Positions 3,821 through 51,643 of a stretch of 64,000 nt of DNA are shown in pieces. This DNA comes from Minisyncoccota bacterium. Lineage in GTDB: Bacteria; Patescibacteriota; Minisyncoccia; Phycocordibacterales; Phycocordibacteraceae. Location of the stretch: assembly GCA_035531495.1 (NCBI GenBank), contig DATKSU010000017.1, forward strand, positions 2,668 through 66,667, read 5' to 3'. Below the pieces are notes generated by a model. The model was not told the origin of the DNA. It did not search any database and worked only from the letters and a program-made list of their open reading frames with translations. Each line of letters begins with the position of its first letter. Position 1 is the stretch's first letter. The position numbers were made by a program, and so were the translations under genes.

Positions 3821-4357
3821 ATGAGCGCTCATTTCAGCGACCCGCGCGAGAATGTGCTCCAGCTCGGGCTGCGCGAGGGCATGAAGGTCGGCGATTTCGG
3901 CACTGGCACCGGCTATTACGCGCGCGCGGCGGCGGGCGTCGTCGGCACGAGCGGCCGCGTTTACGCCATCGACGTGCAGGAGGGCATCCTCAAGCACCTG
4001 AAGCTCAACTCGCACGAGCAGCACCTGCACGTCATCGAGACGGTCTGGGGCGACATCGAGAAGCTCGGCGGCACGCGGCTGCGCGACCGGTCGCTCGACG
4101 CCGTCATCCTCGCGAACACGCTCTTCCAGATTGAAAACCGCTTCGGCCTGCTCTCCGAGATAAAGCGGGTTCTGAAGCCGGGCGGCAAGCTTCTCGTCGT
4201 CGACTGGGCCGGCAGCTACGGCGGCATGGGCCCGGCGCAGGACAAGGTCGTGCCGGAGCACGAAGCGGAGGCCTTCTTCATCACCGGCGGCTTCCATAAG
4301 GCCAAGTCGTTCCGCGCCGGCCCGTATCATTACGGCATAATATTCACGTCGCCATGA
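3821..4357 (+). CDS. class I SAM-dependent methyltransferase
   Basis: Motif I VGDFGTGTGYYA and a post-II LKPGGKLLVVDW motif are present. TGgTATTTT lies 7 nt upstream of the ATG. The gene overlaps the next gene by ATGA. Confidence 0.8.
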   Translation: MSAHFSDPRENVLQLGLREGMKVGDFGTGTGYYARAAAGVVGTSGRVYAIDVQEGILKHLKLNSHEQHLHVIETVWGDIEKLGGTRLRDRSLDAVILANTLFQIENRFGLLSEIKRVLKPGGKLLVVDWAGSYGGMGPAQDKVVPEHEAEAFFITGGFHKAKSFRAGPYHYGIIFTSP

Positions 4358-5664
4358 AAGTATCCCTCTTCCAAGGCATCCTCATCGGCGTTTTCGCTCT
4401 CGGCGCCCTCATCGGCTTGTTCGTCTTCTCGAACTACACGAGCAAGAATACGGGCAATACCGGCGTCGGCACGGTCGTCATCTGGGGCACCCTGCCCGGA
4501 AGCGCGATGAAGGCGGCGCTCGCTGACGTCGTGAAGAAAGACACTTCGCTCAAGAGCGTCTCCTACGTGCAGAAGGACGAAGCGACGCTGCCGTCGGACC
4601 TCGCGGCCGCCATCGCGACGGGCGCCGCGCCCGATCTCGTGCTCGCGTCGCAGGAGAATCTCGAGTCGCTCGCGAAGTTCCTCACCCCCATCCCGCTGTC
4701 GACGCTTTCGGCAAACACGTTCCAGAATTCGTTCGTCAGGGAAGGGCAGATCTTCACGGTGCCGAACGGCGGCGGCTTCTACGGTGTCCCGCTCCTCGTC
4801 GACCCGCTCGTGCTCTTCTCGAATCCGACCATCCTCTCGTCCGACGGAATCGTGAAGCCGCCCGCCACCTGGGAAGCGCTCACGGGCCTCGTGCCGAACG
4901 TCGCCGTGCTCACGCCGACGAAGCAGATAACGCGAGGCCTCGTCGCGCTCGGCACCTATGACAACGTGCACGACGCGCGCGGCATTCTCTCGACGCTCTT
5001 CTTCCAGACGGGCGTGCCCGTCGCGAGCTATTCGCTGGGCGGCATCCTCTCGGCTGACCTCGGCGCGAGCGCGTCCGCCGGCGTGCCGCCCGGCCAGGCG
5101 GTGCTGAATTTCTATACGCAGTTCGCCGACCCCTCGAAGGTCTCCTACACCTGGAACGGTTCCTTGCCGGATTCCGAGCAGGCATTCCTCGCGGGCGATC
5201 TCGCGCTCTACCTCGGCTACGCGTCGGAGGCGCAGTACTTCTCGACCGCGAATCCGAACCTCGCCTTCGAGGTCACGCCCGTGCCGGAGCCCGCGGCGGC
5301 GACGGCGAAGACGGCATACGGCCTCATCTATGCGCTCATGATTCCGCGCGGGGCGAAGAACGTCTCGGGCGCTTACCTGGCGGCGACGGCGCTCGCCGGC
5401 GCACCGGCGCAGTCCGCGCTCGCGAGCGATACCGGCCTCGCGCCCGCAACGCTCACTAACCTCGCGGCGGCGCCTCCCGATCCCACCGCGGCCGTCGCGT
5501 ATAGCGAGGCGCTGTATGCGGCGGGCTGGCTGTCCCCAGCACCGGCCGACACGGATAGCGTATTTTCCGCTATGATTGGGAACGTGATAAGCGGCCGCTC
5601 GACGCTCACCACCGCACTCTCGACCGCGCAGAGCTCGCTCAGCGCGCTCCTGCAGCAACAATGA
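4354..5664 (+). CDS. membrane-anchored extracellular solute-binding-protein-like protein (SBP family 1-like)
   Basis: N-terminal TM helix then a domain with SBP_bac_1-like segments (VVIWGTLP…, KPPATWEAL). Start codon overlaps the methyltransferase stop; stop codon overlaps the first pilin-like gene. No permease or ATPase partner is present in the window. Confidence 0.5.
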   Translation: MKVSLFQGILIGVFALGALIGLFVFSNYTSKNTGNTGVGTVVIWGTLPGSAMKAALADVVKKDTSLKSVSYVQKDEATLPSDLAAAIATGAAPDLVLASQENLESLAKFLTPIPLSTLSANTFQNSFVREGQIFTVPNGGGFYGVPLLVDPLVLFSNPTILSSDGIVKPPATWEALTGLVPNVAVLTPTKQITRGLVALGTYDNVHDARGILSTLFFQTGVPVASYSLGGILSADLGASASAGVPPGQAVLNFYTQFADPSKVSYTWNGSLPDSEQAFLAGDLALYLGYASEAQYFSTANPNLAFEVTPVPEPAAATAKTAYGLIYALMIPRGAKNVSGAYLAATALAGAPAQSALASDTGLAPATLTNLAAAPPDPTAAVAYSEALYAAGWLSPAPADTDSVFSAMIGNVISGRSTLTTALSTAQSSLSALLQQQ

Positions 5665-6215
5665 CCAGAACGCTCGCGTCAACGCTCTTCGCCCTTGCGC
5701 TCTTCACCCTTGCGCCGATTGCGGCGTCGGCGCAAGGCACGGATTGCAACATCCTGGTCCAGGGGGCTTCGTGCGTCACGTCTTCAGGCGCTTCCGGCAC
5801 GTGCCAGCCGACGGGCGGCAATTACGGCAACATGACGTGCCAGGGAGGCGCGCAACAATCAACGACGGGGACAAATACCGGAGGCGCGCAATCGACGGCC
5901 GGGACGAATACGGGCGGTCCGAGCGTGACGCTCACCAATCCGCTCAACACCGGCAGCAACTGCTCCGCGACGAACACCTGCTTGAACGTCTTCCTTATGG
6001 ACATCCTGCAGCTCGTCATCCGCATCGGCGCTGTCGTCGTCGTCGTCATGCTCGTCTACGTCGGCTTCCTCTTCGTGACGGCGCAGGGGAATGAATCGAA
6101 GCTCAGTAGAGCGAAACAAGCGCTCCTCTGGACCATCGTCGGCGCGCTCATCCTGCTCGGCGCCGAAGCCATCGCACAGGGCATCCAGGCGACGGTCCAA
6201 GCGCTCTCCGTATGA
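5661..6215 (+). CDS. TrbC/VirB2-type (T4SS) pilin-like protein, paralog 1, with N-terminal Cys/Gly/Thr-rich extension
   Basis: Signal peptide present. C-terminal two-helix hairpin motif …VMLVYVGFLFVTAQGNESK…ALLWTIVGALILLGAEAI… is shared with the five downstream paralogs. Confidence 0.5.
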   Translation: MTRTLASTLFALALFTLAPIAASAQGTDCNILVQGASCVTSSGASGTCQPTGGNYGNMTCQGGAQQSTTGTNTGGAQSTAGTNTGGPSVTLTNPLNTGSNCSATNTCLNVFLMDILQLVIRIGAVVVVVMLVYVGFLFVTAQGNESKLSRAKQALLWTIVGALILLGAEAIAQGIQATVQALSV

Positions 6216-6475
6216 CGTTCGCCCAGTTCGTCGGCAGCGGCTCGACCGGCATCATTGGCGCCATCAATACGGTCATCGTCCCGCTCATCTTCGGCCTCGC
6301 GTTCGCTTATTTCATCTGGGGCGTCGTCAAGTACTTCTTTATCAACGGCGGCGATGAACGGAGCCGGATCGAGGGGCGGCAATTCGTACTGTGGGGCGTC
6401 CTCGCGATGGCGCTCATCTTCTCGATATGGGGCGTCCTGAATATCCTGTTATCCACGCTCGGCATCGCGCCGTAG
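6212..6475 (+). CDS. TrbC/VirB2-type pilin-like small membrane protein, paralog 2
   Basis: 87 aa. Motif …VPLIFGLAFAYFIWGVVKYF..NGGDE…QFVLWGVLAMALIFSIWGVLN. ATGA overlap with paralog 1. Confidence 0.5.
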   Translation: MTFAQFVGSGSTGIIGAINTVIVPLIFGLAFAYFIWGVVKYFFINGGDERSRIEGRQFVLWGVLAMALIFSIWGVLNILLSTLGIAP

Positions 6476-6506
6476 CGATAACGTGTCATACTGACTAAGC
6501 GGCACT

Positions 6507-6836
6507 ATGAACTTCAGCATCGGATTCGGCGTCGGCGGCGGTTCCGTATGTACGGTCGGCATCTGCCAAGTCGCGAACACCATCCTCTACCTCATCAACG
6601 GCGTGTTCGTCCCCGTCCTTTTCGCGGTGGCGTTCATCGTCTTCCTCTACGGCGTCGCGAAGGCTTATATCTTCTCAGGCGGCGATCCGGGCGAGGTCGA
6701 GAAAGGGCACAAGCTCATCTTGTGGGGTATCATCGCCTTCGTCGTCATGATCTCGCTCTGGGGCCTCGTGAACGTCGTCGCGAATACCTTCGGCCTTGCG
6801 GGGTATTCGGCGCCGCCGATGCCGACATCGTATTAG
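6507..6836 (+). CDS. TrbC/VirB2-type pilin-like small membrane protein, paralog 3
   Basis: 109 aa. Motif …VPVLFAVAFIVFLYGVAKAYIFSGGD…LILWGIIAFVVMISLWGLVNV. Confidence 0.5.
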   Translation: MNFSIGFGVGGGSVCTVGICQVANTILYLINGVFVPVLFAVAFIVFLYGVAKAYIFSGGDPGEVEKGHKLILWGIIAFVVMISLWGLVNVVANTFGLAGYSAPPMPTSY

Positions 6837-6849
6837 AACGACCCTCCCT

Positions 6850-7281
6850 ATGAACAAACTCTCCCTTGCTGGTCCCGATCTTCGCACGCTCGCGCTCAGC
6901 GTCATCTCGTTTCTCGCTGCTGCGCCGGTTGCATTCGCCCAAGTACCGGCGAATACCACCAATACGGGCGCGGGCAGCGTCAACCTGGTATGGCTGCAGT
7001 ACTACCGGGACACCATCGTCTGGGTTATCAACTCGGTCATCGTCCCGGTCCTAATTGCAGTGGCGTTCATCGTCTTCCTCTACGGAGTCTATAAATATTT
7101 CATCCAGGGGGCAGCGAGCGATACCGAGCGGGAGACGGGCCGGAAATTCGTCATGTGGGGCGTGATCGGCATGGTCATCATCGTATCCTTCTGGGGCGTC
7201 GTCAACATCGTCAAGGATACGCTCATCCCCTCGACCGCGAACAACACCGCCCCCGCATACCCGACGCTGCCGACCCAGTAA
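6850..7281 (+). CDS. TrbC/VirB2-type pilin-like protein, paralog 4
   Basis: The ATG at 6850 (MNKLSLAG…) gives a clean signal peptide; the track start at 6796 is an upstream extension. Motif …VPVLIAVAFIVFLYGVYKYFIQG…KFVMWGVIGMVIIVSFWGVVNIV. Confidence 0.5.
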   Translation: MNKLSLAGPDLRTLALSVISFLAAAPVAFAQVPANTTNTGAGSVNLVWLQYYRDTIVWVINSVIVPVLIAVAFIVFLYGVYKYFIQGAASDTERETGRKFVMWGVIGMVIIVSFWGVVNIVKDTLIPSTANNTAPAYPTLPTQ

Positions 7282-7373
7282 GGCCGCCAGGGATTATCCC
7301 CACACGGGCTCGAATGGCGTTGACCGGGCTTGCGGGGAAGCTAGAATAGTACTGTTATCCAATTAACGTCTGT

Positions 7374-7742
7374 ATGAAAAAAGCAATCACTCTTACGGGG
7401 GCGCTCGCGGTGTTCGCACTGCCGCTCGTCTCGTTCGCGCAGGTGAACAACCTCTCGGATGTCGGTTCCCTCATCATCAACATCATCAATAACATCCTCG
7501 TCCCGGTCATCTTCGCGGTGGCGTTCATCGTCTTCCTCTGGGGCGCATTCGACACCTTCATCCTCGGCGCGACGAATGATACGGCGAAGGAGAAGGGCAA
7601 GAGCCTCATGCTCTGGGGCCTCATCGGCTTCTTCGTAATGGTGTCGGTCTGGGGCCTCGTGAACATCCTCACCGGTACGATCACCTTCGGCAACAACACC
7701 GGCCCGTCGAGCGTTCCGACCTCCGGCACGACCGTCCAGTAG
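7374..7742 (+). CDS. TrbC/VirB2-type pilin-like protein, paralog 5
   Basis: Signal peptide MKKAITLTGALAVFALPLVSFAQ. Motif …VPVIFAVAFIVFLWGAFDTFILG…SLMLWGLIGFFVMVSVWGLVNIL. Confidence 0.5.
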   Translation: MKKAITLTGALAVFALPLVSFAQVNNLSDVGSLIINIINNILVPVIFAVAFIVFLWGAFDTFILGATNDTAKEKGKSLMLWGLIGFFVMVSVWGLVNILTGTITFGNNTGPSSVPTSGTTVQ

Positions 7743-7754
7743 CCCTCGCGCTAC

Positions 7755-8042
7755 ATGTCCGTCCTCAACGCCTTTCTCTCGAAGGTCACTGTTCAGATCA
7801 TCAATCCGCTCATCCTGCTCCTGGCCGCCGGCGCGTTCGTCGCCTTCTTGTGGGGAGCGTTTGAGTTCATCCGCAACGGCGGCGACGAGAAGAAGCGTGC
7901 GGATGGGCAGCGAGCAATCCTGTGGGGCATCGTCGGGCTCGTCATTATCTTCGGCGCGTACGGTATCATCAATGTCGCCATGAACACCTTCAACCTCCAG
8001 CCGAACGGGCAGTCGACCATCCAACAGGTCGTCTCCCCATAA
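7755..8042 (+). CDS. TrbC/VirB2-type pilin-like small membrane protein, paralog 6
   Basis: 95 aa. Motif …AGAFVAFLWGAFEFIRNGGDEKK…AILWGIVGLVIIFGAYGIINV. Confidence 0.5.
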   Translation: MSVLNAFLSKVTVQIINPLILLLAAGAFVAFLWGAFEFIRNGGDEKKRADGQRAILWGIVGLVIIFGAYGIINVAMNTFNLQPNGQSTIQQVVSP

Positions 8043-8122: not shown

Positions 8123-8935
8123 TTACTGAGCATAGGCGTATGACACGACATTCGGGTCAGCCTTTCTCATGTTCGTCACGTACACGTACGGCATGTCGCC
8201 GCTCGGACAGGGGTTCCCCCCTATCACAAACGAGGACTCGTGCCCGTCTCGGTAGACGCAGTGTATACGGACATCTTCTCCATCGAACGTTACTCTCATC
8301 TGTTGCGGCACAGGGATGTTCGCCGACCTGCCTCCCCGGGGGAGCATGACTTTCGGCCATGAATCCACGGATTGGCTCGTGAGCGGGATGCTTGCCTTCG
8401 GTGCGTATGCCGCGCTCGGCGCTTTTCCGGATAACAGCCACGAGAGGGCCGGCAGCACGAAGAGCATCGCAAGCACCACCCACACTGCTACCCATTGGTG
8501 CTGCTTCATACGCTCTTGCCACTTCGGGATTAGCAAACCGATGACCCCGAGCGAAGCAACGAGCGTCGCTAATATTAGCCCGACGGCAGCCCAGTGCTTC
8601 CACCACAGGGAGCTTATCGCGGCCATGGTCGGGGGATTTTTTATATAGACCCCGCTCCAGTACCACCCCTCTCCGAGGATGATGGCGAGCAGCACCACCA
8701 AGCCCATTTTTTCCCAAGTGAAGGTCTCCTTGAGCTTCTCGAGGATTTTCTTTGGTTCGTCTCTCGGGCTTGTCGTCGCGGTGACGGTACGCTGCCCCTT
8801 CTCGGGGTTCTTGGCATTCATCTCCGCCTGAACGTTCGCGAGCCGCGTCGAGTGCGGCTGCCTGATACGCAGTACCACAAGAATACCGAGCACGAACAGC
8901 ACGAACGATGCAACGGGAATGATAACGACCATCAT
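8123..8935 (-). CDS. polytopic membrane protein with C-terminal extracytoplasmic domain, co-transcribed with the SPFH protein
   Basis: About four hydrophobic helices and a Cys-containing C-terminal domain. Its start overlaps the SPFH stop (ATGA), so the position suggests an NfeD-like partner. No sequence motif confirms this. Confidence 0.45.
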   Translation of the reverse strand: MMVVIIPVASFVLFVLGILVVLRIRQPHSTRLANVQAEMNAKNPEKGQRTVTATTSPRDEPKKILEKLKETFTWEKMGLVVLLAIILGEGWYWSGVYIKNPPTMAAISSLWWKHWAAVGLILATLVASLGVIGLLIPKWQERMKQHQWVAVWVVLAMLFVLPALSWLLSGKAPSAAYAPKASIPLTSQSVDSWPKVMLPRGGRSANIPVPQQMRVTFDGEDVRIHCVYRDGHESSFVIGGNPCPSGDMPYVYVTNMRKADPNVVSYAYAQ

Positions 8936-10224
8936 ACGGAACCTCCATCAGATTGGCTTGCGGCTGGTTTATTCGGAGCGACCGGCAGCGTAGGCACGAG
9001 CGGCTGGGGTGCTCCCCAGACGATCGTATTGCCGGGACCTCTTGACGACTCTTGCATCGCGTCATACTGCGCGAGTCGGATACCGACTTCACCGACTGCA
9101 CTGATGACGCTGAGTCTCCTCTCGAGGGATTTGGCTTCGGCTTCTCCCGTCATCTCAATGACATCGGCTTTCGCTTTCCCCGTGGTACGCGTGGCAATCG
9201 CTTCCTGCTCGGCAACATAGGCTTTCGTCGCCGCTTCCTGGTTCCTATCTTTCGCGTCGCCAGAAAGATCAATCTTTTGGAGATCGACGGTGCGGATTTC
9301 CACGCCATATCGTCCGAGAAGGCCGAACGGAGGCTTGGTATCCACATCGTCCGGGAGTCGGCTGCTAAGCGCGATAATCGGCGCCGAGTACTCGGTCAGA
9401 TCAACCGTGTCCGTACTTCCTCCCGCCGCCGCCCTCTTGGTCGACCGGATGATATCATTGTACTTCTGAGAGCCGATGAAGGCCCTCGAATTACGGTTGA
9501 TAGCAGCCGTGACGCGTACCATCCAATCCTCGCCGCTGAAAAGCGCGCGGTAGGGATTGCGGACGGCAACCGTCGCGAACGTCAAGACGGTTACTTGCAG
9601 GTTCTCCGACGTTTCTGCGTCCTGGGTGACGAAGACGTAGACAAAGTCCGAGACGTAGACGAGGTCAGTCGCTTCCGCGCGTGGGAAGACCGACTCCGCG
9701 CCGTTCTCGTCCGTGCGCGTCTCGTTCCACACGAACTGATAGACGTGGACTTTGACAGACCACGGCCAGCCAATCCAATAGATGCCGAGATATTTGAGCA
9801 GCCACGACCGCCTGTCGTAGTACGAGTCCTCCATCATCTCGCCCGTGAAGCCGTTCGTATTGCCCGGTCCGTGGAATAAGACTTCCCAATTCGCCTTATC
9901 GGGCTTGAACCCTGGCCCCATCGGGTCGTTCAGATGGAACCCCTCGAATGACATGAGGATCCGCTCGAACGAGTTCCCGCGCAGGATGATCTTCGCGGTA
10001 CCTTCCTTCACGGTGGTGAAGAGGATGGCTTCTTTCGCGAGCGACTTGATGAAGAAGAACAGGATGATACTGGCGAACACCGCGCCGTCAATCGTGATGA
10101 ACAGCCATTTCAGGATGGTTGCCACCAACGGATTGGACAGGCTCAGTATCATGATTATCGTGACAGACAAGATCACGACGACTGGTGCCGACAGATTGCG
10201 GCGCAATTTAGACAGCGGTGCCAT
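8932..10224 (-). CDS. SPFH/band-7 (flotillin-like) membrane protein
   Basis: N-terminal TM helix, an SPFH core, and a flotillin-like Ala/Glu-rich coiled-coil tail (…EAATKAYVAEQEAIATRTTGKAKADVIEMTGEAEAKSL…). Confidence 0.75.
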   Translation of the reverse strand: MAPLSKLRRNLSAPVVVILSVTIIMILSLSNPLVATILKWLFITIDGAVFASIILFFFIKSLAKEAILFTTVKEGTAKIILRGNSFERILMSFEGFHLNDPMGPGFKPDKANWEVLFHGPGNTNGFTGEMMEDSYYDRRSWLLKYLGIYWIGWPWSVKVHVYQFVWNETRTDENGAESVFPRAEATDLVYVSDFVYVFVTQDAETSENLQVTVLTFATVAVRNPYRALFSGEDWMVRVTAAINRNSRAFIGSQKYNDIIRSTKRAAAGGSTDTVDLTEYSAPIIALSSRLPDDVDTKPPFGLLGRYGVEIRTVDLQKIDLSGDAKDRNQEAATKAYVAEQEAIATRTTGKAKADVIEMTGEAEAKSLERRLSVISAVGEVGIRLAQYDAMQESSRGPGNTIVWGAPQPLVPTLPVAPNKPAASQSDGGSV

Positions 10225-15187: not shown

Positions 15188-15964
15188 ATGAATATCGAGG
15201 AACTCTCGAAATCCCAGCTCATCCTGCTCACGATCCTCGTAAATTTCGTTACGTCGGTCGCTACCGGCATCTTGACCGTGTCCCTGCTCGACCAGGCGCC
15301 GCCGGTGGTCACGCAGACCGTGAACCGCGTCGTCGAGCACACGATCGAGACCGTCGCCCAAGCGGCTCCGGCGGCCGTCATCTCGGCCCCGGCCCCGGCC
15401 CCGTCGAACCAGGACCTCGTCACGGCGGCCATCGGCGCCGACGCGTCGCGCGCCGTCGACATTTATGACGCGAAGACCGGCACCTCGACGCCCGCGCTCG
15501 CGGTCGGCACCTACCTGCCGGAAGCGCGTGCCATCGCCACCGCGGCGAAAGATTCGCTTCCGCAGGAAGTCATCATCGGCTTCGCGGGCAATTCCTACGT
15601 GCCCGCGTCGCTCTCGCACAAAGGGCAGGGCATCGCCATCTACGGCTTCTCGGATAAGGCGACTCTGCCGAAGGCGTCCGTGCCAGCCTTGGTCGCCGCG
15701 CAGAACCTCAAACTCGGTCAGACGGCGCTCGCGGTGGGCGCCGACGGCTCCGCCTCGACTGGTATCGTCTCCCGCGTCGGCGCGAGCGGCGTCCGCACGA
15801 CCTTGCCGGAGATCGGTGCCGGCAGCGCGGCGGTGGACCTCTCGGGGAACTTGATTGGCATCGCGGCCGGCGGGACGCCAGGGCTCCTCATCCCGACCGA
15901 TGTCATCACGGCGCTCCTCACGGCGACGTCCTCGGCTGCAACGTCCACGGCACCGGCGACGTAA
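15188..15964 (+). CDS. membrane-anchored trypsin-like (S1C/HtrA-like) protease homolog, apparently catalytically degenerate
   Basis: N-terminal TM helix. C-terminal half aligns to the HtrA core (…GQTALAVGADGSASTGIVSRVG…AAVDLSGNLIGIAAGG…). The GNSGG serine motif is replaced by GSAAV, and no catalytic His is evident. Confidence 0.45.
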   Translation: MNIEELSKSQLILLTILVNFVTSVATGILTVSLLDQAPPVVTQTVNRVVEHTIETVAQAAPAAVISAPAPAPSNQDLVTAAIGADASRAVDIYDAKTGTSTPALAVGTYLPEARAIATAAKDSLPQEVIIGFAGNSYVPASLSHKGQGIAIYGFSDKATLPKASVPALVAAQNLKLGQTALAVGADGSASTGIVSRVGASGVRTTLPEIGAGSAAVDLSGNLIGIAAGGTPGLLIPTDVITALLTATSSAATSTAPAT

Positions 15965-15984
15965 TAGTCAATAAATAGTACGGT

Positions 15985-18663
<2,679 letters not shown>

Positions 18664-18890: not shown

Positions 18891-18893
18891 CTG

Positions 18894-18964
18894 CGGGCCC
18901 ACCAGGACTCGAACCTGGGACGGCGGTTTTGGAGACCGCTGTTTTACCACTAAACTATAGGCCC
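18894..18964 (-). tRNA. tRNA-Gly (anticodon TCC)
   Basis: Acceptor GGGCCTA/TGGGCCC, anticodon arm GCGGT-CTCCAAA-ACCGC, T-arm CCAGG-TTCGAGT-CCTGG. Confidence 0.75.
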
Positions 18965-19042
18965 ATACGGACAAACGATAGCAGACGCGACGCAGTGGGG
19001 AAAGGCGCCGCAGCCGCACGGCGGCCGCGGTATGATGCCGGT

Positions 19043-20017
19043 ATGCGTTCTCGCATCCTCCTGCCCGCCCTCTTCCTCGTCGCGGCCGGCGCGTTCGTTC
19101 TGCCGAACGTCACGCACGCCGCCATCCCGTTCTTTGGACCCATCATCCCGGCCGGCAACGACACGTGCCCGGCGGGGTGGGGCATGTTCATGATCGTCAT
19201 CAACAACATCGTCGAGCTCCTCATCACGCTCGCCATCGTCTTCGTCGCGCCGCTCACGATCGCGTGGGCCGGGTTCCTCTATGTCGTCAATCCCGTCGAC
19301 CCGAGCGGCATGAGCCGCGCGAAGTCCATCCTCTGGAACACGGTCTTCGGCATCGTCATCGCGCTCGCCGCATGGCTCATCGTGGACGCCATCTTGGCGG
19401 CGCTGACCAACCAGGGGCTGACCTACTGGGCGAGCCTTGTCGGCAGCAACGGCACGCAGCCGTGCCTCTCGGTCGCGAGCTCGCTCCGGCAGGCCGCTCC
19501 GCCGACGACCACGGCCGGACTCGCGGTCGGGACGACGCCGACGGTGACGGGCGTCGGCGCGGGCGGCCAGCAGTACCTCTCGTTCGGCTCGGGCGCGTGC
19601 GTGGCGACGGCCGTGCAGCAGGGCGCGACCTCAGGCGGCTACAGCCTGACCGTCGCGCAATCGAATACGCTCGCCTGCATCGCGCAATTCGAGAGCACGT
19701 GCGGTTCGAACCTCAGGCCGAATCCGGCCTCAAGCGCCGCTGGCGCGTTCCAGGTCCTGCTGCAGCGAAACAGCGCGTGCTACAACAATGCGGCTTGCGA
19801 GCAGGCCGCCGGTCAGCCCGGCGTGCCGCTTAATTGCCAGAATGGATTCAGCGGCGGTCAATCGTTGAACAATGCCACTTCGCAGATGTGCTATGCCGCC
19901 GCAGCAAATCTCGCGTGCGCAGCGTCGGCGGCGGCCTGTCTCGTGCAAGCAAATCCGAACTTCAGCGATTGGGCGACGCCGAGCGACCAATCCTGCGTGC
20001 GCACCTACAACATCTGA
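19043..20017 (+). CDS. pilin-like N-terminal module fused to a Cys-rich C-terminal domain with lytic-transglycosylase-like motifs
   Basis: ATG at 19043 with TATGAT 6 nt upstream. Signal peptide present. The helix-loop-helix (…LITLAIVFVAPLTIAWAGFLYVVNPVD…SILWNTVFGIVIALAAWLIVDAIL…) resembles the 5661-8042 paralogs. The C-terminal 150 aa carries FESTCG, GAFQV and SACYNNAA in SLT order, plus 12 Cys. Confidence 0.45.
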   Translation: MRSRILLPALFLVAAGAFVLPNVTHAAIPFFGPIIPAGNDTCPAGWGMFMIVINNIVELLITLAIVFVAPLTIAWAGFLYVVNPVDPSGMSRAKSILWNTVFGIVIALAAWLIVDAILAALTNQGLTYWASLVGSNGTQPCLSVASSLRQAAPPTTTAGLAVGTTPTVTGVGAGGQQYLSFGSGACVATAVQQGATSGGYSLTVAQSNTLACIAQFESTCGSNLRPNPASSAAGAFQVLLQRNSACYNNAACEQAAGQPGVPLNCQNGFSGGQSLNNATSQMCYAAAANLACAASAAACLVQANPNFSDWATPSDQSCVRTYNI

Positions 20018-20034
20018 CGCGCTATGATGAACCT

Positions 20035-20631
20035 ATGATGCGGATACTGGCCATCGGTTCGCTCGCAGTCATCGTCGTCGCGGCGATCGCTTTCTACGTT
20101 CTCGCCCCGAAGCAACCGCAGCAGCAGGCGCCCGCCGGAAGCGGCGCGCCGGTAACGCTGCCGTCAGCCGGCGAGACGACAGTCACCGTCGGCAACTCGG
20201 GCGCCACATTTGCGCCGGGCGAACCGAACATGTCCCTCACTCTCGCGACGGGGAGCACCACCGTCGTCAAGGATTTCATAACGAGCAGCACGACCGGCAA
20301 AGACGTGCAGAACCCGGGCGTCTACTACCTGGCCGGGAGCGCCGGGTACTGCCTCGCGGACGGCACGTGCCCCCACGGCGCCGCCGTGAGCGATTTCATC
20401 ATCACCTACGACTCCTCGAGCGAATTCTTCACGATATCGCTCACAGAGGAGCCGCTCGCCACGGCGCGCGCGGACGCCGAGCAGTTCCTCGCGACGACGC
20501 TCGGCCTATCGGACATGCAGCTGTGCGATCTCAAGTACACGGTCCTGACGAACGAATCCGTGAACGCGTTCTTCGCCGGCAAGAATCTCGGTTTCAGCTC
20601 CTGTCCGGGCGCGACGGTGCTGCCGCAGTAG
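20035..20631 (+). CDS. hypothetical membrane-anchored secreted protein
   Basis: ATG at 20035 with TATGAT 6 nt upstream. N-terminal TM/signal anchor followed by a Thr/Ser-rich extracytoplasmic domain. Confidence 0.4.
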   Translation: MMRILAIGSLAVIVVAAIAFYVLAPKQPQQQAPAGSGAPVTLPSAGETTVTVGNSGATFAPGEPNMSLTLATGSTTVVKDFITSSTTGKDVQNPGVYYLAGSAGYCLADGTCPHGAAVSDFIITYDSSSEFFTISLTEEPLATARADAEQFLATTLGLSDMQLCDLKYTVLTNESVNAFFAGKNLGFSSCPGATVLPQ

Positions 20632-44221: not shown

Positions 44222-44683
44222 TCACAGCGAGGTGAAAGAACCGATAGAGATGAAATCCTTCCCGGGTTCCCGGTAGTAGACCTCCGTCCGGAATTTCCGG
44301 CCGCGGATGGCTTGCGGCATCCAGCGGCTGTCGGCCTCAAGCATATCGTCGAACGGAAGGTCGTCTACGTCGTACCATTGCGGTACCATGCAGGCCGTCT
44401 CGCGCGGCTCGCCCGTGAACGAACCGGTGCGGAAGACATGCACCTCCTGGTGCGGCACGCCGCCGGCGTAGAACGTGATGACGGCGACCTCTTTGAGCTT
44501 ACTCGCGTCGATCGTCACGCCGGCTTCTTCCCGCGCCTCCCGGATGGCGCAGTCAACGAGCGACTCGCCCTCTTCCTGCTTGCCGCCGGGAGCGTTCACC
44601 TTACCTTCGCAGAATCCCTCCTTACTGAGTCCGAGGAGGATCTGCTCGTCCTTGATGATGAGTACAAGTGTCGCGATGCGCAT
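44222..44683 (-). CDS. NUDIX hydrolase
   Basis: Nudix box GGKQEEGESLVDCAIREAREEAGV. ATG at 44683; the track start at 44752 is a TTG. Confidence 0.75.
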   Translation of the reverse strand: MRIATLVLIIKDEQILLGLSKEGFCEGKVNAPGGKQEEGESLVDCAIREAREEAGVTIDASKLKEVAVITFYAGGVPHQEVHVFRTGSFTGEPRETACMVPQWYDVDDLPFDDMLEADSRWMPQAIRGRKFRTEVYYREPGKDFISIGSFTSL

Positions 44684-44733
44684 GGCAGGCCTCCTGGTTG
44701 CGTGCTCCGGCGGTATGGTATCATCGCCCGCAT

Positions 44734-45459
44734 ATGGATACCAACCAATCAAACGGGAACAAGTTCTTTCTGCCGATAGCCGTCATCTTAGCCGGTTTCT
44801 TCATCGCTGGAGCGGTCGTCTGGAACGGTTCGCATCCCTCGGCCGGCACGGCCGGAACGGCGGGCACGGCCGGGACGCCGCCCGCAGCCGCAGTCAACAT
44901 CCAGGACGTGAACACGTCGGGCAGTCCGTACATCGGGCAGCCGAACGCGCAGACGACCATCGCCTTCTGGTCCGACTTCCAGTGCCCGTTCTGCAAGCAG
45001 TTCGAGGTGACGACCTTGCCGCAGATCATTCAGAACTACGTGAACAGCGGCAAGGCGAAGGTCGTCTTCATGGACTATCCTTTCCTCGGCCCGAACTCGA
45101 TGGTGGACGCGGAGTACGCCCGCTCCATCTGGAAGCTCTATCCGGACAAGTACTTCACCTGGCGCTCGGCGTTCTTCAATAGTCAGCCGCAGGAGAACAG
45201 CCTCGATGCGACGCAGAATCTCGCCTTCATCAAGACGACGACGGATTCCGTCTCCGGCCTCGACTGGGCGAAGATCAAGGCGGATGTCGCAGCGAATCAG
45301 ACCGCCTACGACGCGGCCATCAACGCCGACAAGACGGAAGGGCAGAAGTTCGGCGTGAACGCGACGCCGTCGTTCATCATCGGCACGCAGCTCATCGCCG
45401 GCGCGTACCCCTACGCGAACTTCCAGTCGGCCATCGACGCGGCGCTTTCGGGCGGCTAG
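44734..45459 (+). CDS. DsbA-family thiol:disulfide oxidoreductase (membrane-anchored)
   Basis: ATG at 44734 (the track used a GTG at 44668). TM anchor and CPFC active site in …FWSDFQCPFCKQF…. Confidence 0.75.
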   Translation: MDTNQSNGNKFFLPIAVILAGFFIAGAVVWNGSHPSAGTAGTAGTAGTPPAAAVNIQDVNTSGSPYIGQPNAQTTIAFWSDFQCPFCKQFEVTTLPQIIQNYVNSGKAKVVFMDYPFLGPNSMVDAEYARSIWKLYPDKYFTWRSAFFNSQPQENSLDATQNLAFIKTTTDSVSGLDWAKIKADVAANQTAYDAAINADKTEGQKFGVNATPSFIIGTQLIAGAYPYANFQSAIDAALSGG

Positions 45460-48836: not shown

Positions 48837-48844
48837 AGATGGAA

Positions 48845-51643
48845 ATGGAATCGGCGCCGACATTGTCCACGCCTGAGGCGGAGCTCGCGTACCTGCGCGA
48901 ACAGGTCGCGCGCAAGGAGGCCGAACTCTCCGCCGCCGGCCGCGCGGACGCGGCTGCCGAGCGCCCGCGGCTCGTCGCCGAGGAGCTGCGCGCGCACCAA
49001 GCGGCGCCAGCCGAGATACTCGCGTCCGCGTACCGCATGAGCGCCACCGAGGCCGCGAGCGCCGCCGAGCGCATTCTCGCCGAACTCGACGTCGGCGACG
49101 AGGCGGACGCGATACGGCAGATACAGCAGGTGCTCGAGGAGAAGGGCATCAAGAACGCGCTCGCCGTGCTCGAGAAGCTCCAGAATCCGCGCATCGGCGA
49201 CGACCTGCACCGCTATCTCGTGCGCTACATCGCAGCCGGATTGCCAATGGCCGCCGGCGGCGAGAAGCTGCCGCAGTTCGCCGCGCTCCGCATGACGCTC
49301 TACGAGATCGCCTTGCCGGAACCGAAGGGCGCGGACGGCGGCGGGCGCGAGAAGTCGCTCAAGGAGCTCATCTCTGCGATGGAGCAGTTCTACGCGGGAC
49401 TCCTCTCGGTCGCCGAAGCGGCGCCCGGCGAGCCCGGCTACTACGCGCTCGAGCTTGCCGTTCCGGCGGAGAGCCCGGAGCTCCAGTTCTACGCGGCGAT
49501 TCCGAACGGCAAACGCAACCTCTTCGAGAAGCAGCTCCTCGCGATGTTTCCGGACGCGCATCTCGTCCCGCAGCCGCTCGATTACAACGTCTTCGCGGCT
49601 GGCGGCGCGTCGCTCGCGTCGGTCGCGCGGCTGGCGGCGAACCCGGCGCTCCCGCTCAAGGATTACGCCGATTTCGATTACGACCCCTTGAACGCCGTCA
49701 CGAACGCCTTCGCGAAGATCGAGCACGTCGGCGAAGGCGCCGCCATCCAGTTCATCATCGAGCCGCGCGGCGAGCGCCACGTCGAGCACTACCGGAAAGT
49801 CCTCCATGCGCTCCAGAAGGGTGAGACGGTCGCGCAGGCGCTCCGGACGCCCGGGACCGTGTTCGGCGAGCTCGCGCGCGACGTCGCGAAGACGTTCTTC
49901 TCGCGGACGCCGGACGAGAAAGGGAAGGAGAAAGCGAAGGAAGACGCAGCGCGTCGCGTCGAGGAGAACAAGCCGACCGCCGAACAGGTGGAGCGCAAGA
50001 TTTCCGCGCCCATCGTCGGTACGACCATCCGCCTCGTGACGTCGTCGAAAGACGCGACGAAGGCGGCGCAGGTGCTCGGCGAGCTTGAGGCGGCATTCAA
50101 CCAGTTCGCGAACACGCGGGGCAACCGGCTCGAGTTCGCGCGCATGACGCCCGGGCAAAAGGGCGCCGCGCGCGTCTTCGAGGACTTCTCGTTCCGCCTG
50201 CCGGAGGCCACCGGGCTGCCCTTATCCTTGCGCGAGCTCACGGCGCTCTACCACTTCCCGCCGTCGGGCGTCGCATCGTCGCCGCACCTGAAGCAGGCGC
50301 GCTTCACGCACGCGCCCGCGTCCCTCTCGCTCTCGAAGGAGGGCGCGCTCCTCGGGACGAATAGTTATCGCGGCCACGACACGGCGGTGTACCTTGACCC
50401 AGAGGACCGGCTGCGGCACCTCTACGTCGTCGGTCAGACGGGTACCGGCAAGACAGGTCTCATGAAGAACCTCATCATCCAGGACATCCGCCGCGGCGAA
50501 GGCTGCTGCTTCATCGATCCGCACGGTAATGACATCTTCGACATCCTCGCGGCCGTGCCGCCTGAGCGCTATGAGGACGTCATTTACTTCGATCCGGCTG
50601 ACCTCTCACGCCCATTCGGCCTCAATTTCCTCGAATACGAGCATTCGCGCCCCGAGCAGAAGACGTTCATCGTGAATGAGCTCCTCGCCATCTTCCGCCG
50701 CCTGTATGGTGACGTGCCGGAGAGCATGGGGCCAGCTTTCGAGCAATACTTCAGGAACGCGACCCTGCTCGTCATGGAAGATCCCTCATCGGGCTCGACC
50801 ATCCTCGATATCGCGCGTGTGCTCTCGAATGCGGAGTTCCGTGCGCTGAAGCTCGCGAAAAGCATGAACCCCATCGTGAACCAGTTCTGGACGGAGATAG
50901 CGACGAAGGCCGGCGGGGAAGCGGCGCTTGAGAACATTGTCCCGTACATCACGAACAAGTTCGACGACTTCACGGCGAACGACTTCATCCGACCCATCGT
51001 CGGGCAGCAGGAATCGTCGTTCAAGTTCCGCGACGTCATGGACAACCGCAAGATCCTCCTCGTGAACCTTTCGAAAGGGCGGCTCGGCGAGCGCAACGCG
51101 AACCTGCTCGGCCTCGTCGTCGTCGGCAAGCTCTTCATGGCCGCGCTCGCGCGCGCCGACAATCCGCGCGCGGCATATCCGCCGTTCTACCTCTACATCG
51201 ACGAATTCCAGAACGTCACGACCGATTCCGTCCCCGGCATCCTCTCCGAGGCGCGCAAATACAAGCTCGCGCTTTCGATGGCGCACCAGTTCCTCGCGCA
51301 GCTCGAGGAGAAGACGCGCGACGCCGTCTTCGGCAACGTCGGCAACATGACGATCTTCCGCGTGGGCGAGGAAGACGCCGAATTCTTCGCCAAGCAGTTC
51401 GCGCCAGTCTTCGGCGCGCCGGATTTCGTGAGCATCGAGAACAGGAGCGCCTATGTGAAGCTGCTCGCGCACGGCGTGCCGCAGAAGCCGTTCGATATCC
51501 GCACGCCGGACCTGCTGGCGGGCAATCCGGCGCAGGTTGACGAGCTTATCCAGCTTTCCGCGCTCACTTACGGCCGCGACCGTGCTACTGTGGAGACGAC
51601 GATCCGCGAACGCTACCTGGGCCGCGCGGCAGCTGCTATATGA
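48845..51643 (+). CDS. FtsK/HerA-superfamily P-loop ATPase, TraD/VirD4 (T4SS coupling protein)-like with TraD_C-like tail; no TM anchor
   Basis: Walker A VVGQTGTGKTG followed by CFIDPHGND, Walker B YLYIDEFQN, and C-terminal …ARKYKLALSMAHQFLAQL…. The N-terminal 480 aa are soluble and unassigned. Confidence 0.65.
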   Translation: MESAPTLSTPEAELAYLREQVARKEAELSAAGRADAAAERPRLVAEELRAHQAAPAEILASAYRMSATEAASAAERILAELDVGDEADAIRQIQQVLEEKGIKNALAVLEKLQNPRIGDDLHRYLVRYIAAGLPMAAGGEKLPQFAALRMTLYEIALPEPKGADGGGREKSLKELISAMEQFYAGLLSVAEAAPGEPGYYALELAVPAESPELQFYAAIPNGKRNLFEKQLLAMFPDAHLVPQPLDYNVFAAGGASLASVARLAANPALPLKDYADFDYDPLNAVTNAFAKIEHVGEGAAIQFIIEPRGERHVEHYRKVLHALQKGETVAQALRTPGTVFGELARDVAKTFFSRTPDEKGKEKAKEDAARRVEENKPTAEQVERKISAPIVGTTIRLVTSSKDATKAAQVLGELEAAFNQFANTRGNRLEFARMTPGQKGAARVFEDFSFRLPEATGLPLSLRELTALYHFPPSGVASSPHLKQARFTHAPASLSLSKEGALLGTNSYRGHDTAVYLDPEDRLRHLYVVGQTGTGKTGLMKNLIIQDIRRGEGCCFIDPHGNDIFDILAAVPPERYEDVIYFDPADLSRPFGLNFLEYEHSRPEQKTFIVNELLAIFRRLYGDVPESMGPAFEQYFRNATLLVMEDPSSGSTILDIARVLSNAEFRALKLAKSMNPIVNQFWTEIATKAGGEAALENIVPYITNKFDDFTANDFIRPIVGQQESSFKFRDVMDNRKILLVNLSKGRLGERNANLLGLVVVGKLFMAALARADNPRAAYPPFYLYIDEFQNVTTDSVPGILSEARKYKLALSMAHQFLAQLEEKTRDAVFGNVGNMTIFRVGEEDAEFFAKQFAPVFGAPDFVSIENRSAYVKLLAHGVPQKPFDIRTPDLLAGNPAQVDELIQLSALTYGRDRATVETTIRERYLGRAAAAI

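Follow-up and report, generated by a model that had tools for sequence, protein, structure and literature searches.

A candidate pilin-tethered, diverged lysozyme-like protein encoded at a conserved housekeeping locus of Patescibacteria

The gene at 19043 and its pilin-like module

We analysed a stretch of 64,000 nucleotides (the window, meaning this whole stretch) from contig DATKSU010000017.1 of a Minisyncoccota bacterium, with a G+C content of 64% and a gene content typical of a Patescibacterial genome. The gene in question, 19043-20017 on the plus strand, lies among clpB, rpmG, tRNA-Trp, miaA, prx and parB and encodes a protein of 324 residues, in which an N-terminal module resembling the pilins of type IV secretion systems (T4SS) is followed by a flexible tether and a cysteine-rich C-terminal domain, here called the head. 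Judging from homology and conservation, we consider it moderately probable that this surface enzyme is a pilin-tethered, diverged lysozyme-like peptidoglycan glycosidase which breaches cell walls. An earlier reading made from the letters alone (the sequence-only reading) had proposed a pilin fused to a lytic-transglycosylase-like domain, and both halves of that proposal found support. The parts of the gene are as follows.

19043-20017, plus strand: coding region of the fusion of pilin module and predicted lysozyme-like domain, 324 residues plus stop, ATG start (open reading frame listing)
19031-19036, plus strand: -10-like hexamer TATGAT of a leaderless-type start, 6 nucleotides upstream of the ATG (read from the sequence)
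19043-19120, plus strand: predicted signal peptide, residues 1-26 (hydrophobic segment 1-28; presumed cleavage)
19121-19465, plus strand: VirB2/TrbC-type pilin module, residues 27-141 (PF18895 match, AlphaFold2 helices, profile matches)
19466-19582, plus strand: flexible tether rich in Pro, Thr, Ala and Gly, residues 142-180 (low model confidence; length variable among homologues)
19583-20014, plus strand: predicted disulfide-rich, diverged lysozyme-like (SLT_3-related) head, residues 181-324, ten cysteines (AlphaFold2 model, hhalign, Pfam matches of relatives)
19691-19693, plus strand: codon of Glu217, the putative catalytic general acid (invariant; aligns with Glu35 of C-type lysozymes and with the Glu of the ES motif of SLT_3 and SLT)

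For the fusion protein 401 homologues of similar length were recovered, from metagenome-assembled genomes of Kaiserbacteria, Paceibacterota and Parcubacteria, and the NCBI label on some family members is just "pilin". In an alignment of 112 homologues the family conservation began at Met1, and the public gene call (P0001, 340 residues) was for this reason judged to begin 16 codons too early. A still longer open reading frame with a TTG start at 18929 was rejected; it overlaps tRNA-Trp (18893-18964, minus strand). The hexamer TATGAT, noticed 6 nucleotides upstream of the gene in the sequence-only reading, was found exactly there. The arrangement TATGAT-N6-ATG was retained in 51 of 69 orthologues, most of the others fitting TAnnnT at that place; in over-extended public calls of orthologues the box reads in frame as R-Y-D-x-x-M. 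We rejected the view that such a start is a peculiarity of this gene, as many window genes share the arrangement: a motif scan detected TAnnnT 5-7 nucleotides upstream of many start codons (for example 3821, 20035, 23192, 31990, 41966, 45523 and 53998, and on the minus strand 14902, 25775 and 29855), and leaderless mRNAs look like a genome-wide habit.

The N-terminal part has the layout of the pilin family, that is, a signal peptide and then two long hydrophobic helices which a short basic loop joins. Hydropathy placed hydrophobic segments at residues 1-28, 45-83 and 95-124 and a short loop bearing Arg and Lys, NPVDPSGMSRAKS, and the AlphaFold2 model had two long helices at 46-82 and 87-122. 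The signal peptide would end in T-H-A (family consensus A-H-A) before (A/G)-I-P-F-F-G-P, and its residues P21, A24 and A26 are invariant or nearly so in the 112-homologue alignment; the module itself runs from an IPFFGPIIP N-terminus through C42, helix 1, the basic loop at 84-97, helix 2 and W129 to C141. Pfam T4SS_pilin (PF18895) matched residues 52-117 with E 2.5e-5 and 24.7 bits, against a curated cut-off of 26.6. The same family was matched in 27 of 32 close and 37 of 42 distant relatives, several above the cut-off (best E 9e-14), and eight of the 42 distant relatives matched TrbC/VirB2 in addition.

Free-standing pilins of this family are also encoded in the window itself.

5661-8042, plus strand: tandem array of six small T4SS_pilin paralogues (PF18895, E 4e-7 to 6e-9)

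A profile of the first 145 residues (the N-module) matched five of these six array pilins with E 1e-13 to 1e-4. When searched against 5.8 billion proteins, it retrieved free-standing PF18895/PF04956 pilins of 120-150 residues at E 1e-12 to 1e-18; this search gave mainly fragments and small pilins and is informative on pilin homology only. The kinship of the first 140 residues with the open reading frames at 5661-8042, proposed in the sequence-only reading, was borne out by both the PF18895 and the profile matches. On these matches the N-terminus is assigned to the T4SS_pilin/VirB2-like modules.

It could be argued that the hairpin is a mere membrane anchor which resembles a pilin and has no link to a T4SS or pilus, since the PF18895 score of this protein lies under the cut-off, two hydrophobic helices can match through composition, and the gene stands outside any T4SS cluster. 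Such an anchor is hard to reconcile with the mean column identity of 57% over the N-module, in which IPFFGPIIP, C42, W129 and C141 are invariant or nearly so, or with the retrieval of bona fide pilins and of the window's own array at the E-values given above. The conservation of the N-module exceeds the needs of a generic anchor, and we regard this explanation as unlikely.

Like VirB2/TrbC pilins and PF18895 arrays, the module has a signal peptide and then two helices with a basic loop between them, and its sequence family is detectable; an array of T4SS_pilin genes was reported to be essential in Southlakia epibionticum (PMC10633639). Known pilins differ from the protein studied here in being about 90-150 residues long and having no enzymatic extension, and array pilins are hypervariable, with an average identity of about 25% (PMC12102498), whereas the present module is conserved, with invariant motifs and a cysteine pair of its own. 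The codons of that pair, 19166-19168 for C42 and 19463-19465 for C141, lie just before helix 1 and just after helix 2, and the pair was absent from those free-standing array pilins that were looked at. A C42-C141 disulfide could tie the ends of the hairpin together, which would be reminiscent of the head-to-tail cyclised TrbC/VirB2.

The pilins at 5661-8042 are divergent in sequence, and the first carries a cysteine-rich N-terminal extension. Ahead of it stands a gene for a solute-binding protein (4354-5664), and behind it, on the opposite strand, come genes coding for a membrane protein and for a protein of SPFH/Band-7 type (8123-10224); as a whole the array resembles the essential pilin arrays reported from Saccharibacteria.

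The tether had a predicted local distance difference test score (pLDDT) of 45-64 in the AlphaFold2 model, falling below 50 at residues 147-158, and it takes up inserts of up to about 100 residues in some homologues. Inserts of 60-100 residues were seen in the orthologues P0036, P0059, P0111, P0070, P0082 and P0109, examples being CDVGSE..GSKCTNPDSGEYTLPRGSSCP..GDCSVCTEGGCD and, in P0070, a run resembling epidermal growth factor-like domains and DUF5885.

The cysteine-rich head and its relation to lysozymes

Modelled alone, the head was compact, with a pLDDT of 87 and a predicted template modelling score of 0.82. In the model Glu217 stands at the C-terminal end of a helix (204-218), and a beta-hairpin with strands at 232-239 comes next, an arrangement that lysozymes share. 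The three motifs pointed out in the sequence-only reading are present, namely FESTCG at residues 216-221, GAFQVLL at 234-240 and SACYNNAA at 244-251. Its count of 12 cysteines holds for the whole protein and not for the C-terminal domain to which it had been ascribed: ten lie in the head, and the other two are C42 and C141, which flank the hairpin. E217, C220, A232, G234 and Q237 were invariant across the 112 homologues. Conservation of the Glu in FESTCG had been set as a check on the proposal, and it extended further, Glu217 being invariant also in 42 distant relatives at the edge of detection, where the G..Q motif stays conserved.

The relationship to the lysozyme-like/SLT clan emerged stepwise. 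Direct scans of this protein gave no Pfam or NCBIfam match over the head; the Pfam scan of this protein held no PF01464 match, and SLT_3 (PF18896) was not matched by this protein and reached 15.8-20.2 bits in close relatives, against a cut-off of 27. A head-only profile searched against 1.84 billion cluster representatives found 154 proteins, nearly all of 300-350 residues with the domain at the C-terminus. Among the 42 most distant of these head relatives, SLT_3 was matched in 15 (best 6.5e-9), SLT in four and Phage_lysozyme2 in one. The profile also found P0233 at E 3.3e-8, a protein which scores 36.6 bits on PF18896 and so lies above the cut-off, and P0248, which combines T4SS_pilin, SLT_3 and SLT matches.

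With hhalign, the head family aligned to SLT_3-like heads of syntenic genes (98%, E 2.3e-13, 119 columns), and these in turn aligned to canonical SLT domains including E. coli Slt70 (83.5%, E 8e-6). The motif register was constant along this chain, FESTCG, TESSG and IESEG standing in one column block and GAFQV, GTFQI and GVMQL in the other. When the head was aligned directly with canonical SLT domains and Slt70, the result was not significant (E 0.13, probability 0.5%). Membership of the head in the lysozyme-like/SLT clan is thus supported through transitive homology and not by a direct match. The nearest curated family is SLT_3, named 'Lysozyme like domain', which is sub-threshold in close relatives and above or near its cut-off in distant pilin-bearing ones; the present head differs from it in giving no match, in its greater length, and in its ten cysteines and extra helices. 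No functional test of PF18896 was found in the literature.

Motif I (E-S) and motif II (G-L-M-Q) of SLT domains are present in order and were aligned in every comparison. Motif III (A-Y-N-A-G), which canonical SLT orthologues carry as AAYNAG about 60 residues after GLMQ, is missing from the head at the expected distance of about 55-60 residues past motif II. The sequence-only reading had taken SACYNN for this motif, and we rejected that assignment: SACYNN lies only seven residues past GAFQV, the alignment sets it against the stretch that directly follows GLMQ, and the Tyr of SACYNN is replaced by His in distant relatives. Without motif III and without significant direct similarity to the family, the head is not placed among the family-1 lytic transglycosylases.

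A profile search of PDB sequences returned C-type lysozymes essentially alone, which were also the only matches with an E-value below 1 (best 6ukc, E 0.0085, the others up to 0.5). In these alignments CIAxxES...G.FQ of the head overlies CLAKWES...GIFQ, so that Glu217 is placed on Glu35; several cysteines and a C-terminal Trp align as well, and both proteins are disulfide-rich. The position of Asp52 is taken by Ala (SSAAGAFQ against STDYGIFQ), and the Glu35/Asp52 pair of glycoside hydrolase family 22 (GH22) is therefore not complete in the head. GH22 is an animal family, and at these E-values the likeness may reflect a shared superfamily core.

Structure searches gave a less clear picture. Foldseek of the full-length model against the PDB yielded noise only, and for the head, despite its confident model, nothing significant was found in the PDB (best E 1.0) or BFVD (best E 0.4), with TM-scores of 0.3-0.4. 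The weak PDB matches included a GH23 chitinase (E 1.0), Slt (5.6) and a fly lysozyme (6.3), lysozyme-superfamily enzymes making up three of the top five, and most annotated BFVD matches were lysozyme-like, SLT or LT_GEWL, with E-values from 0.4 upward. The structural check suggested in the sequence-only reading hence came out divided: a significant match to a lysozyme fold was not obtained, a recognisable non-lysozyme fold did not appear either, and the weak matches were mostly lysozyme-like. The predicted fold is consistent with lysozyme and unproven.

These blanks in Foldseek and in the direct Pfam scan might also be expected if the head were a novel cysteine-rich fold unrelated to lysozymes, its motifs being coincidental. 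We consider this extremely improbable in view of the profile chain (E 2.3e-13, then 8e-6) with its consistent motif register, the recovery of an above-cut-off PF18896 member, P0233, in the library-wide search, and weak structural matches that are almost all lysozyme-like.

An open reading frame at 44668-45459 (plus strand) encodes a membrane anchor and a CPFC motif and is probably the source of the Thioredoxin_4 (DsbA-like) match in the scan of the window. Its product would supply extracytoplasmic disulfides for the cysteine-rich head and for the partner protein described below.

Exchange of heads at one locus and the downstream partner

One genome per species was scanned, which gave 164 genomes with a relative; 80 loci were fetched, and 76 complete, non-redundant loci were classified. 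The order clpB-rpmG-X-miaA-prx-parB, where X is the gene in question, miaA is convergent and prx encodes a peroxiredoxin, was kept in nearly all 80 loci. It is clear from this survey that at least 164 species genomes have the gene and that its locus is conserved in at least 80 species of Kaiserbacteria/Paceibacteria. The pilin module was found in every locus and the C-terminal head differed between loci, so that eight head classes occur on one module at one locus:

Cysteine-rich lysozyme-like head, the type of the present gene: 26 of 76 loci
SLT_3-like head: 17 of 76 loci
Canonical SLT head: 6 of 76 loci (36-67 bits, cut-off 21.3)
Five unrelated-looking classes with S-x-H-x-x-G...V-D...G-x-H-x-H: 27 of 76 loci

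Some syntenic orthologues bear textbook SLT heads with ES...GLMQ...AAYNAG (57-67 bits against 21.3). The signature of the 27 remaining heads is one which we take to be associated with LAS/M15 metallopeptidases; these heads gave sub-threshold matches to VanY (6 of 27, best E 2.6e-5), Peptidase_M15_3, M15_4 and Hedgehog-N, and a PDB sequence search with profiles of three of the alternative head classes found nothing. Their assignment as putative M15/LAS-type peptidases rests on the shared H...D...HxH signature together with the sub-threshold Pfam matches. All recognisable heads would be peptidoglycan-cleaving, and therefore the assignment of the present head is supported independently of its sequence similarity.

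Head type is only weakly related to phylogeny, and swapping is frequent. The nearest neighbour by pilin module had the same head in 28 of 76 cases, where about 20% would be expected at random; by miaA this was so in 24 of 71 (34%), by prx in 15 of 56 (27%) and by parB in 18 of 51 (35%). Head and partner are also the fastest-evolving genes at the locus, with identities to the window proteins of 32-66% and 26-51%, as against 78-89% for ClpB.

The exchange of heads bears on a further explanation, in which the head is catalytically dead and serves as a glycan-binding or adhesin module of lysozyme fold gripping peptidoglycan or a host surface glycan. Non-enzymatic proteins with a lysozyme fold exist, for example alpha-lactalbumin, and the head has a heavily remodelled fold with no second carboxylate at the Asp52 position. 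We nevertheless find this very unlikely: Glu and G..Q are strictly invariant over very divergent sequences, and the head is interchangeable with canonical SLT heads and with peptidase heads that keep a metal-ligand signature, which argues that catalysis is selected.

One locus, in a complete Kaiserbacteria chromosome (L060, OY969413.1, 3953-7131), contains two tandem cassettes whose pilin modules are near-identical and whose heads differ. The first consists of pilin, LAS-type peptidase head and a partner-like gene, the second of pilin, lysozyme-like head and partner; the tandem would seem to have arisen by recent duplication accompanied by the exchange of a head.

Directly downstream of the gene lies a second one, here called the partner gene.

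20023-20028, plus strand: second TATGAT, 6 nucleotides upstream of the partner ATG (sequence and motif scan)
20035-20631, plus strand: partner gene, 198 residues (N-terminal membrane anchor, Ser/Thr/Pro tether, domain of about 130 residues)

What the sequence-only reading had listed as a secreted hypothetical protein at 20035 was confirmed as a membrane-anchored hypothetical protein. An alignment of 36 orthologues showed that its domain ends in NLGFSxCPGATxLP (NLGFSFCPGATxLP) and that C164 and C190 are invariant. No relative was found in Pfam or NCBIfam by direct scans, or in the PDB by a profile search. By profile search, the partner was detected downstream of all 26 cysteine-rich heads and of 16 of the 17 SLT_3-like heads, the exception being at a contig end; it accompanied 42 of 43 lysozyme-like heads in total, none of the six canonical SLT heads and one of the 27 peptidase heads, that one being the tandem locus L060. 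Because it is co-inherited, adjacent and of similar tethered design, the partner is suggested to be a specific binder of the lysozyme-like head that could serve as inhibitor or immunity factor, or else as regulator.

Proposed mode of action and target

The architecture, the chain of homology, the conserved residues, the swapping of heads and the co-occurrence of the partner are results of this analysis, and the proposal of a pilin-tethered, wall-breaching glycosidase rests on them; where the signal peptide is cut, how the protein lies in the membrane, which disulfides form, how the head acts and on which wall, whether the module enters a pilus and what the partner does are inferred in the following scheme. 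After Sec export and cleavage of the signal peptide, the two-helix VirB2/TrbC-type module would come to lie in the membrane, its basic loop toward the cytoplasm and both hairpin ends outward, as suggested by the positive-inside rule and the analogy with VirB2. The module may also enter a pilus of the T4SS type, which Patescibacteria are believed to form. From the outer C-terminal end, the flexible tether of about 40 residues would give reach to a compact head with ten cysteines and possibly five disulfides. In cleavage of the MurNAc-GlcNAc bond of peptidoglycan the general acid would be Glu217, positioned at the end of a helix before the beta-hairpin with G-A-F-Q. A single-acid chemistry of the SLT/goose type is proposed because the second carboxylate of C-type lysozymes has no counterpart here. 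The partner (20035-20631) most likely binds the lysozyme-like head and restrains it in the producer's own envelope.

In Patescibacteria, epibiotic growth was reported to require the T4SS and arrays of VirB2-like pilins (PMC12102498, PMC10633639, PMC12857230), while the function of the apparatus and the crossing of the wall barrier are so far unexplained in these bacteria (PMC10633639, PMC12857230). Several results weigh against the proposed scheme. T4SS machinery is not adjacent to the gene, whose neighbours are housekeeping genes in the window and in the 80 other loci; VirB4 was not found in the window, nor was any T4SS family among its 25 best Pfam families; and a pilus has so far not been demonstrated in any Patescibacterium (PMC12857230). 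The T4SS_pilin score of this protein lies slightly under the curated value, and for the head the direct domain scans, the direct hhalign comparison with canonical SLT and the Foldseek searches were all without a significant match. An immunity role of the partner is, moreover, hard to square with its being missing at SLT and peptidase heads, and upholding it there amounts to special pleading.

The sole candidate for a T4SS ATPase in the window is a P-loop protein of 934 residues encoded at 48839-51643 (plus strand), which is weakly TrwB-like. Its C-terminal half contains a Walker A motif (GQTGTGKTG), FIDPHGN, LYIDEFQNV and ARKYKLALSMAHQ. The matches are weak (TrwB, E 0.0044; IcmO/DotL, E 0.15), and no PDB relative was found at E 1e-5. 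This protein may be a VirD4-like T4SS ATPase, lying about 29 kb from the gene.

As regards the target, we lean slightly and tentatively toward the host cell wall, and the producer's own wall is a substantial possibility. The host wall is indicated by the frequent swapping of heads with different bond specificity, the fast evolution of head and partner, the tandem cassettes and the immunity-like partner. Under a fuller form of this idea, which we hold to be possible and on balance doubtful, the locus would be a polymorphic weapon or entry tool of the core genome: the VirB2-like pilin would display swappable peptidoglycan-cleaving heads on the pilus or contact site to breach the host wall, the heads would recombine as hosts change, and a membrane-tethered immunity protein would protect the producer from the glycan-cutting heads.

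The contrasting explanation, to which we give a sizeable minority of our belief, is an enzyme acting solely on the producer's own wall, that is, a cis-acting autolysin or VirB1 surrogate on a pilin-derived hairpin, needed for passage of a pilus or T4SS or for growth and division, with the partner as its regulator. This would fit a single-copy, near-universal core gene in a strongly conserved housekeeping neighbourhood of at least 164 species genomes, as well as a tether of about 40 residues suited to reach the wall layer from the membrane. It would also fit the lack of a recognisable VirB1 in most CPR (Candidate Phyla Radiation, that is, Patescibacterial) genomes bearing VirB2 (PMC12102498) and a repertoire of SLT and peptidase heads mirroring the membrane-anchored hydrolases of Gram-positive T4SS (PMC12102498). 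Against this explanation, one would expect the chemistry of the own wall to stay constant within a lineage, but heads of different bond specificity often replace one another with little phylogenetic signal; tandem cassettes exist, and head and partner evolve faster than anything else at the locus; separate VirB1 homologues have, furthermore, been reported near virB4 in Paceibacteria (PMC12102498).

Comparison with known systems shows likenesses on both sides. VirB1-type lytic transglycosylases (A. tumefaciens VirB1, R1 P19; PF01464) resemble the putative glycosidase in having an SLT-clan head with a single Glu in E-S followed by G-x-x-Q, in that both are presumed to make way through peptidoglycan for an apparatus of T4SS type, and in that some syntenic orthologues here have a bona fide SLT head. 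VirB1 is, however, soluble, periplasmic and encoded inside the virB operon, whereas the present head is covalently attached to a pilin module, encoded among housekeeping genes, devoid of AYNAG and not detectably SLT by direct comparison. The Gram-positive hydrolases PrgK (pCF10), TraG (pIP501) and CwlT (ICEBs1), as cited in PMC12102498, likewise belong to monoderm cells and join an N-terminal anchor to extracytoplasmic SLT-type and/or peptidase domains; they have a single-pass anchor and several catalytic domains, while the proteins studied here have a VirB2-like hairpin and one head per protein, varying by species.

Polymorphic effector-immunity systems, such as those of the Tse3-Tsi3 type in the type VI secretion system (PMC3792639) and the bacteria-killing T4SS effectors (PMC6536674), share with this locus a constant N-terminal module with variable wall-degrading heads, fast evolution, a small envelope partner gene just downstream of the commonest heads, and tandem cassettes in one genome. 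They differ in that an immunity gene would follow every head type, which is not the case here for SLT and most peptidase heads, and in that the present locus is core and syntenic instead of an island. The building blocks are known ones (VirB2-like pilins, SLT/lysozyme-like and M15 hydrolases, anchored T4SS hydrolases and effector-immunity pairs), and Pfam models exist for both halves of the protein under consecutive accessions, PF18895 and PF18896. A non-exhaustive literature search found no description of the pilin-hydrolase fusion, the conservation of its locus, the polymorphism of its heads or the partner. To our knowledge, a pilin is not among the modules that carry effectors in the trafficking modes described so far.

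A large part of bacterial diversity belongs to the Patescibacteria, whose cells live attached to those of others, and a conserved pilin subunit bearing a wall-cutting enzyme that is swapped between species offers a testable answer to how a wall is opened. It would also explain why most such genomes appear to be without VirB1 (PMC12102498). If the pilin indeed carries a polymorphic weapon, this would be a new mode of effector delivery and a concrete step in the opening of hosts by epibionts; if it acts on the own wall only, the result is the more modest one of a new architecture for a T4SS-associated or housekeeping autolysin. The family would further add a new and far-diverged branch to the lysozyme-like superfamily, its partner is a candidate for a new lysozyme-binding protein, and the whole is a natural case of enzymes displayed in modular fashion on a pilin scaffold.

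Two minor observations were made in the course of the searches. In two long proteins, P0228 (1731 residues) and P0232 (1148 residues), short parts of the head profile were matched 6 and 10 times, respectively; the two may consist of repeats of a domain fragment, or the matches may be due to low complexity. In the window, very long antisense open reading frames opposite real genes, for example 15718-18087 on the minus strand (789 residues, opposite clpB), are artefacts of the high G+C content.

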